IMG/VR virus record: IMGVR_UViG_3300028840_005911
Location: 64,001-128,000 of that record
Source: a virus
Reading direction: 5' to 3' (one strand)
Length of the DNA: 64,000 nucleotides
Below are positions 29,262 to 29,737 of the stretch, in pieces. The position numbers and the translations under genes are program-made. The notes beneath the pieces are model-generated. The model searched no databases. It was not told the DNA's origin and was given only the letters and a program-made list of their open reading frames with translations. Within the stretch, counting starts at the first letter, position 1; every line of letters begins with the position of its first letter.

Positions 29262-29611
29262 GCAAAGAGCTATACAACCAGCTATTGAAAATGATGTTGT
29301 TGGCCGATGTCCGGAACCCCATGTCTGCGACAGATCAGGTGGACTGGATCATAGAGATACTGGACGCGCTCTTGAACAGAACCAATGTGCAGTATATGGA
29401 TTTGGAAGACGGCCTTACGTTCTTTGAAGACAGGTCAACATACCATTTGACAACAATGTGCATCAACGAGGTGTACAGAGTGTACGTCTTGGAGGAGTTT
29501 GGTGGCGAGTTCGCCCTTATCACACCCAAACTCCTTCCGGACCATATCAAAGAAAAGATCCTGGATGTTCTGAAGGACTTCATTTCGAAGTGCGCCTCAG
29601 AAGGGACTTGA
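29258..29611 (+). CDS. hypothetical phage protein
   Basis: ATGA overlap. Confidence 0.6.
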   Translation: MSKELYNQLLKMMLLADVRNPMSATDQVDWIIEILDALLNRTNVQYMDLEDGLTFFEDRSTYHLTTMCINEVYRVYVLEEFGGEFALITPKLLPDHIKEKILDVLKDFISKCASEGT

Positions 29612-29737
29612 GTGACGGTTCGTACGGTCGGCTGTATGGTCGGGAGCGCGTCTGGATAGTGTGGGGTTTGTGGGACGGCCCGCAGGGATGTCGGAACGGT
29701 GTGGACAAGAAAGAGGGCCTTCTGTCTTCTTTCTTAC
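29610..29737 (+). ncRNA. (GNNN)n array C plus terminator hairpin
   Basis: G at 21/23 in-phase positions 29610-29698; hairpin AAGAAAGAGGGC/GTCTTCTTTCTT-AC. Confidence 0.8.

Follow-up and report, generated by a model that had tools for sequence, protein, structure and literature searches.

Within a 64,000-nucleotide stretch of viral DNA (positions 64,001 to 128,000 of the IMG/VR virus record IMGVR_UViG_3300028840_005911, which is 192,446 bp long with direct terminal repeats; hereafter the window), we found an array of 23 GNNN units, array C, in which a guanine recurs every four bases in the 3′ untranslated region (UTR) of an operon mRNA. This array belongs to a set of about seven (GNNN)n arrays, which lie on the + strand from 18.4 to 32.2 kb of the window, in non-coding sequence at transcript ends, and a gene in the same block encodes a protein of 418 amino acids (aa) in which a winged helix is joined to a domain of the Cas7-type RAMP fold. 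Counting this phage, the gene and period-4 arrays are found together in five lineages. The reading that we favor, with a probability of roughly 0.6, is that array C is coated by the winged-helix/RAMP protein, with one G per protomer, and serves as a guide like those of the VIPR systems of phages, but in steps of four bases. Array and gene coordinates are window positions throughout (Table 1), and positions in the complete record are marked as genome positions.

Array C keeps a four-base guanine register

The first unit of array C begins with the G of the TGA stop codon (29609–29611) that closes the open reading frame (ORF) 29258–29611. G occupies 21 of the 23 period-4 positions, and the first 12 units form an uninterrupted series of G units. 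The original prediction, made from the letters of the sequence, had listed these 23 tetramers from a start inside the stop codon, and both its reading of the units and its counts hold on recheck. It had also carried the array on to 29737; the periodic part ends at 29701, and the remainder is a terminator hairpin with a TTAC end.

As a null model the window was simulated 300 times in blocks with a first-order Markov model, and the best 23-unit period-4 count for any base was taken from each simulation. These best counts were 15–19, compared with 21 for array C and 22 elsewhere in the real window. In addition, a count above 20 of 23 was reached in the real window by no other base, nor at periods 3 or 5. 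Because the real counts lie above those of the simulations and those of other bases and periods, we conclude that chance is excluded and that the period-4 observation stands. The predicted RNA fold of array C, which is 47% G, is ordinary (z −0.15), as should be the case for a single strand presented by a protein.

The two units of array C without an initial G, AGTG and TGGG (29658–29665), are adjacent and the original phase resumes after them, as had been noticed earlier, but the +1 wobble of the G that had been proposed to explain them is not needed. Across all arrays, G stands at position 2 in 10 of 23 non-G units and in 56 of 189 G units; because this is no clear excess, such a wobble is indistinguishable from two ordinary non-G units. 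The first base of the non-G units is T in 14 cases, A in 7 and C in 2. The broader proposal, that selection acts on the four-nucleotide (nt) register, finds support in the recurrence of the register beside RAMP homologues in four other lineages and in the holding of phase without indels over 23 units in array C and up to 63 units in array E, far above chance, although the register is not absolute. Between the members of three strain pairs (L026/L027, L028/L029 and L013/L014) the arrays are identical or one substitution apart.

The arrays are non-coding parts of RNAs

When the units of all arrays are pooled, G makes up 87–89% of position 1 (212–231 units) and positions 2–4 are near random, with 80 distinct tetramers among 212 pooled units. 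We therefore conclude that the arrays are not microsatellites: a tetranucleotide microsatellite repeats one unit head to tail, and here the first base alone is fixed. Every array is found either downstream of a stop codon or within an ORF-less transcript, and always ahead of a terminator hairpin, and from this placement we conclude that the arrays are parts of RNAs. Two of the genes that carry an array in their 3′ UTR, 17575–18393 and 31264–31773 (both + strand), are sigma-factor-like (PHROG 351; Sigma70 region 4).

Genome-wide, strong arrays (at least 10 units) are confined to genome positions 89–96 kb and to the + strand. An isolated stretch with G at 11 of 12 period-4 positions, also on the + strand, lies far from the main block at genome 156388–156432 and may be due to chance; besides it, no comparable tract of any base was found elsewhere in the genome. 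An exact census of (GNNN)×16+G in IMG/VR gave at least 119 matches, and because those among the matches listed were all simple or low-complexity repeats, the census is uninformative on abundance.

A winged-helix protein with a Cas7-like RAMP domain

Sequence searches of Pfam, PHROGs and PDB with the 418-aa protein gave no match. No DNA or protein relative was found in a phage collection, and a search for related loci in IMG/VR and the genome collection likewise gave none. An exhaustive HMMER search with the protein yielded 88 representative relatives, and an AlphaFold2 model built on an alignment of 60 of these 88 had a predicted local distance difference test (pLDDT) score of 86. The top PDB matches of the model in Foldseek were all Cas7-type RAMPs (E 2e-6). 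VIA-align matched residues 149–360 to Cmr4, Csm3, type VII Cas7 and Cas7-11 with Z values of 10–11.8 over 160–176 residues, the alignment spanning whole Csm3 chains, and the best viral structural matches were phage proteins of ∼200 aa, one of them named a RAMP protein. Residues 1–135 of the model form a PadR-like winged helix-turn-helix (wHTH), and a loop conserved in the family, S-P-x-R-G...G, lies near the end of the RAMP core.

When the RAMP domain was modelled as a trimer, head-to-tail contacts were predicted, with an ipSAE of 0.54 compared with 0.00 for the best control. Among proteins solved as pairs, 20 of 30 attained the mark set for such predictions, whereas among those solved as single chains 1 of 23 did so; the trimer runs agreed in at least 64% of contacts, with a partner pLDDT of at least 70. 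Because Cas7 filaments have already been solved, however, this pass may reflect only the likeness of the domain to Cas7. The 192-kb genome contains no CRISPR-like repeat array, although no systematic search was aimed at other cas genes.

RAMP homologues are followed by period-4 arrays in other lineages

We compared contigs of ten lineages carrying homologues of the RAMP gene, with array calls limited to the fragments available. In four metagenomic lineages other than that of this phage, homologues with 29–37% identity have period-4 G arrays directly 3′, beginning ∼0–40 nt past the RAMP stop codon. In the pair L026/L027 (37% identity, GC 63%), ∼1 kb of (GNNN)13–33 blocks immediately follows the RAMP gene and every block is closed by a conserved hairpin of ∼48 nt, the layout of a guide array. 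Five copies of this hairpin (GTCAGAACAGGRCCCACGA ... TCGTGGRCCCGATTCTGA) lie between the GNNN blocks at L026 3259–3970, and conservation extends to the final units ahead of the hairpin (GCGC GRNC GAC-like). In L028/L029 (30% identity) there are four stop-array-terminator units, the first immediately after the RAMP gene; L153 (29% identity, GC 68%) has 36 units immediately after the gene and 32 units upstream; and in L155 (31% identity) ∼300 nt of period-4 blocks immediately follow the gene. Promoters, terminators and base composition differ among the array-bearing lineages, and the constant association across them is that of the RAMP gene with the 4-nt register.

A different arrangement follows the RAMP homologue of L030, where positions 2695–4211 hold eight modules of ∼120–160 nt, each with a terminal hairpin bearing the conserved loop GGCCGTGATGGT. 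The stems of these hairpins vary between copies yet stay paired, and the variable parts of the modules have no clear period-4 G. These modules may represent another guide format of the RAMP family.

Relation to VIPR and to other protein-RNA assemblies

In VIPR, a phage Cas7-like protein, Vipr, acts with vrRNAs made of 9–16 pentanucleotide repeats and a structured 3′ tail; Vipr protomers polymerize on the RNA, hold its fixed bases and present the variable ones, which pair with double-stranded DNA, every third base being skipped, such that rival phages and satellites are silenced (bioRxiv 10.64898/2026.04.26.720920, 10.64898/2026.04.26.720927). The repeat variants include YNNGG, NNNGG, YNNNG, NNNNG, GAC/NN and others, all with a 5-nt period, and a survey of entropy periodicity reported bands at 5, 18 and 60–79 nt together with a small number of clusters at 7, 8 and 10 nt, with none at 4 (same preprints; bioRxiv 10.64898/2026.10.21.760802). 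We found no mention of a period-4 form of VIPR in the literature searched.

VIPR is nevertheless the closest known kind of system, and the system described here looks like a four-base-step variant of it, since it resembles VIPR in every testable feature apart from the differences given below. Like VIPR type II of Escherichia phage SUSP1, it comprises a phage-encoded solo Cas7-like RAMP outside any CRISPR locus, in this case with the glycine-rich loop expected of such a protein, and non-coding RNAs with a very short repeat that combines fixed and hypervariable positions. In L026 the likeness extends to variable blocks followed by a conserved structured 3′ element directly after the gene. Few fixed bases per unit, down to the single fixed G of NNNNG, are also known among the VIPR repeat variants.

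The differences concern both RNA and protein. Each step covers 4 nt, with one fixed G and three free bases, compared with 5 nt (GGY and NN) in SUSP1, and period 4 takes the place of tandem pentanucleotides in this window and in L026, L028, L153 and L155. The arrays of this phage have 13–63 units and are scattered across 14 kb, in the 3′ UTRs of mRNAs. The protein has 418 aa with an N-terminal wHTH, whereas SUSP1 Vipr has 195 aa. Finally, the RAMP gene lacks the adjacent vap gene that is typical, but not universal, for vipr; the fused wHTH may replace a DNA-binding Vap.

Structurally, residues 149–360 are closest to the backbone subunits of class 1 CRISPR systems (Csm3, Cmr4, type VII Cas7 and Cas7-11), which assemble head to tail into a filament along a guide RNA, each protomer keeping one base out of the pairing register. 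Those systems differ in having a 6-nt register, repeat-spacer arrays and partner Cas proteins, in contrast to the period of 4 found here, and their backbone subunits lack the extra wHTH domain of the 418-aa protein.

A conserved base or triplet that recurs, with free bases in the intervals, at the step length of an oligomeric protein is also seen in the sites of TRAP, with (G/U)AG every 5–6 nt, and in the assembly origin of tobacco mosaic virus, with G at every third base. The parallel is one of analogy only, as these cases involve other proteins and other periods and have no guide function.

Free triplets and target searches

Several properties of the free triplets recall codons. The third free base has a raised GC content, which follows that of third codon positions in each genome (0.70 versus 0.83 in L026; 0.56 versus 0.64 in this phage). 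Sense stop triplets are rarer among the free triplets than expected (5 observed versus 14.5 expected, P = 0.0004), in part because TA is depleted overall, and codon-usage likelihood weakly favors frame 0. We regard this codon-likeness as suggestive, bearing on the rule by which triplets might be read, and not as a decoded rule.

Nothing above shuffled controls emerged when the 192-kb genome was searched for self-targets of whole arrays and of 9-unit windows at skips of 0–3, or when 10-unit windows at skips of 0–2 were compared with the genome and fetched loci. Exact 7–8-unit scans, which covered a tiny part of the search space, returned zero matches in IMG/VR (array C with skips of 0 and 1, arrays E and F with a skip of 0) and in GTDB genomes (array C with a skip of 0).

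Weighing the guide reading and its alternatives

If array C is a guide of the VIPR kind, the 418-aa protein, expressed from the same class of promoter, would form a head-to-tail polymer on the array, in which each protomer grips one fixed G and presents three free bases. The resulting filament would recognize nucleic acid through the free triplets, most likely double-stranded DNA that belongs to a rival phage or satellite. Likely 3′ handles would be the terminator hairpins, a role that the hairpin of array C may fill.

A number of observations weigh against this reading. On the family side, L013 has only weak period-4 stretches, and four of the ten lineages (L010, L030, L031 and L154) have no period-4 array on the available fragments; moreover, an all-against-all BLASTP comparison of ORFs within 6 kb of the gene in seven lineages found only the RAMP gene in common. 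In this phage the arrays share the promoter block of the RAMP gene but lie 1–12 kb from it, in mRNA 3′ UTRs, and their tail is only a generic terminator that is also present without arrays. Phase is broken between blocks within some arrays, for example by −1 near 18420 (A0) and by +2 at 32034 (F). VIPR was described in 2026, and every published vrRNA repeat is a pentanucleotide (bioRxiv 10.64898/2026.04.26.720920, 10.64898/2026.04.26.720927). We also located the SUSP1 Vipr family in KT454805.2 by its repeats and built a 24-sequence profile; in hhalign comparisons, the 60-sequence profile of our family gave probabilities of 0.3–0.4% both with SUSP1 Vipr itself and with this profile. Membership in the Vipr sequence clade, defined by the PSI-BLAST family seeded on X1U2U4, is unproven.

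One alternative that retains the RAMP protein as the binder is that the arrays are platforms and not guides, so that the protein would coat the 3′ UTR and act in cis, for example by protecting these mRNAs from 3′ exonucleases or host RNases, tuning termination or buffering the level of free protein. That the arrays of this phage and of L028 are parts of mRNAs just ahead of terminators, and not stand-alone small RNAs, is consistent with such a coat, as are the lack of a target in the genome, the fetched loci or the exact scans of public collections and the length of the arrays, whose 13–63 units exceed the 9–16 repeats of published vrRNAs. Yet a pure scaffold needs no 80 different tetramers and no depletion of sense stop triplets among its free bases, the ORF-less unit of array E (30797–31187) has no gene to protect, and L026 shows the classic guide-array layout, its variable blocks each with a conserved closing hairpin and placed directly after the gene. 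On balance we consider a coat acting only in cis unlikely, although it is the strongest competitor of the guide reading.

We think it less probable still that the G tracts are read by some other factor, such as the transcription or termination machinery of phage or host or another RNA-binding protein with a 4-nt footprint (of the KH type, for instance), and that the proximity of the RAMP gene is incidental. The arrays always precede one class of terminator and two of them follow sigma-like genes, both of which would suit another reader, the RAMP protein being their proposed binder. However, four independent lineages with different promoters, terminators and GC content all have arrays that start no more than ∼40 nt past the RAMP stop, no other neighboring gene is conserved, and terminators of the same class occur without arrays.

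A functionless origin, either through decay of a tetranucleotide repeat or as an accident of base composition in G-rich non-coding sequence, which the G-richness of the region and the preponderance of simple repeats among the exact (GNNN)×16 runs of the IMG/VR matches listed might bring to mind, is contradicted by the 80 distinct units with no repeat at positions 2–4, by simulations that never came near the observed counts, by the confinement of the arrays to one strand of one 14-kb block and by their recurrence with one protein family, and we consider it highly improbable. Ideas involving R-loops, a replication origin or anti-Rho activity were dropped because they leave the 4-nt period unexplained.

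Transcription signals and other elements of the block

The terminators of the block are hairpins with a purine-rich 5′ and a pyrimidine-rich 3′ arm that end in TTAC or TTAG, not in a U-run, and are followed by a GGTATAAGA promoter. An array precedes seven of the 10 terminators; examples of this class with no array lie at 19330–19357 and 30090–30119. The promoter-like motif GGTATAAG has 11 of its 13 + strand genome copies within a 15-kb block (window 16423–31212). The promoter motif and the terminator class make up a phage-specific transcription grammar that is common to the relative L010.

Table 1. Window coordinates of array C, of the other arrays and of associated features
Feature	Position	Strand	Description
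Array C	29610..29701	+	23 GNNN units, 21 with G; 3′ UTR of operon 27147–29611, beginning in the TGA stop of the operon
Operon	27147..29611	+	four genes, including DUF5131 gene 28551–29261; transcript carries array C
Terminator hairpin of array C	29706..29737	+	hairpin ∼29706–29735, purine-rich 5′ arm, pyrimidine-rich 3′ arm, TTAC end
Promoter-like GGTATAAGA of next unit	29768..29776	+	one of 13 + strand copies, genome 80.4–95.2 kb
Solo wHTH + Cas7-like RAMP gene	19436..20692	+	418 aa; own GGTATAAGA promoter; proposed binder of the arrays
Array A0	18396..18474	+	8 units, then ∼13 after a −1 phase shift; 3′ UTR of sigma-like gene 17575–18393
Array A	25176..25227	+	12 of 13 G
Array B	26901..27040	+	31 of 35 G; after stop at 26881
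Array D	30563..30678	+	25 of 29 G; preceded by a stop at 30540 and by the palindrome CCAACA-N4-TGTTGG
ORF-less transcript	30797..31187	+	hairpin leader, array E, terminator
Array E	30909..31160	+	54 of 63 G, single phase
Array F	31997..32190	+	10 units, then 39 (36 G) after a +2 shift; 3′ UTR of unit with 31264–31773

A palindrome, (C)CAACA-N4-TGTTG(G), occurs in eight copies in the genome, five of them here (30134–30149, 30542–30557, 30747–30760, 31198–31211 and 32238–32251), just upstream of GGTATAAGA promoters or just past a stop codon, and could be an operator or an RNA hairpin. Downstream of array C, positions 29781–30122 (+ strand) form an ORF-less unit that runs from a GGTATAAGA promoter to a terminator without GNNN periodicity. 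It is predicted to fold far more stably than shuffled sequences (z −3.64, 0 of 100) and it has no Rfam match, making it a candidate structured phage RNA. A scan of the window at the Rfam gathering thresholds returned only tRNAs, and an E-value scan of 29600–32300 returned nothing. Among the tRNAs, a second one assigned by Rfam at 23921–23998 (+ strand; 50.8 bits) was not reported by ARAGORN and overlaps the start of an ORF call.

Implications

A more far-reaching version of the guide reading, which we put forward tentatively and at less than even odds, is that RNA is read in a 4-nt register, with one anchored G and three presented bases, by a RAMP lineage of its own that has diverged deeply, that the guide specifies its target in gap-free triplets, possibly codon by codon, and that the guides lie in the 3′ ends of ordinary phage mRNAs. 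If this were true, transcripts of the early and middle phases would also serve as precursors of guides, because the guides would be written into the 3′ ends of mRNAs, and the arrays would constitute a second, independent short-repeat code beside the 5-nt code of VIPR. Searches at period 5 miss relatives of this kind. A four-base step would show that neither the repeat length nor the recognition code is fixed in this class of RNA-guided proteins, and three free bases per unit could allow a denser, possibly gap-free reading of the target, which would be of interest both for the pre-CRISPR evolution of such codes and for programmable DNA binding.
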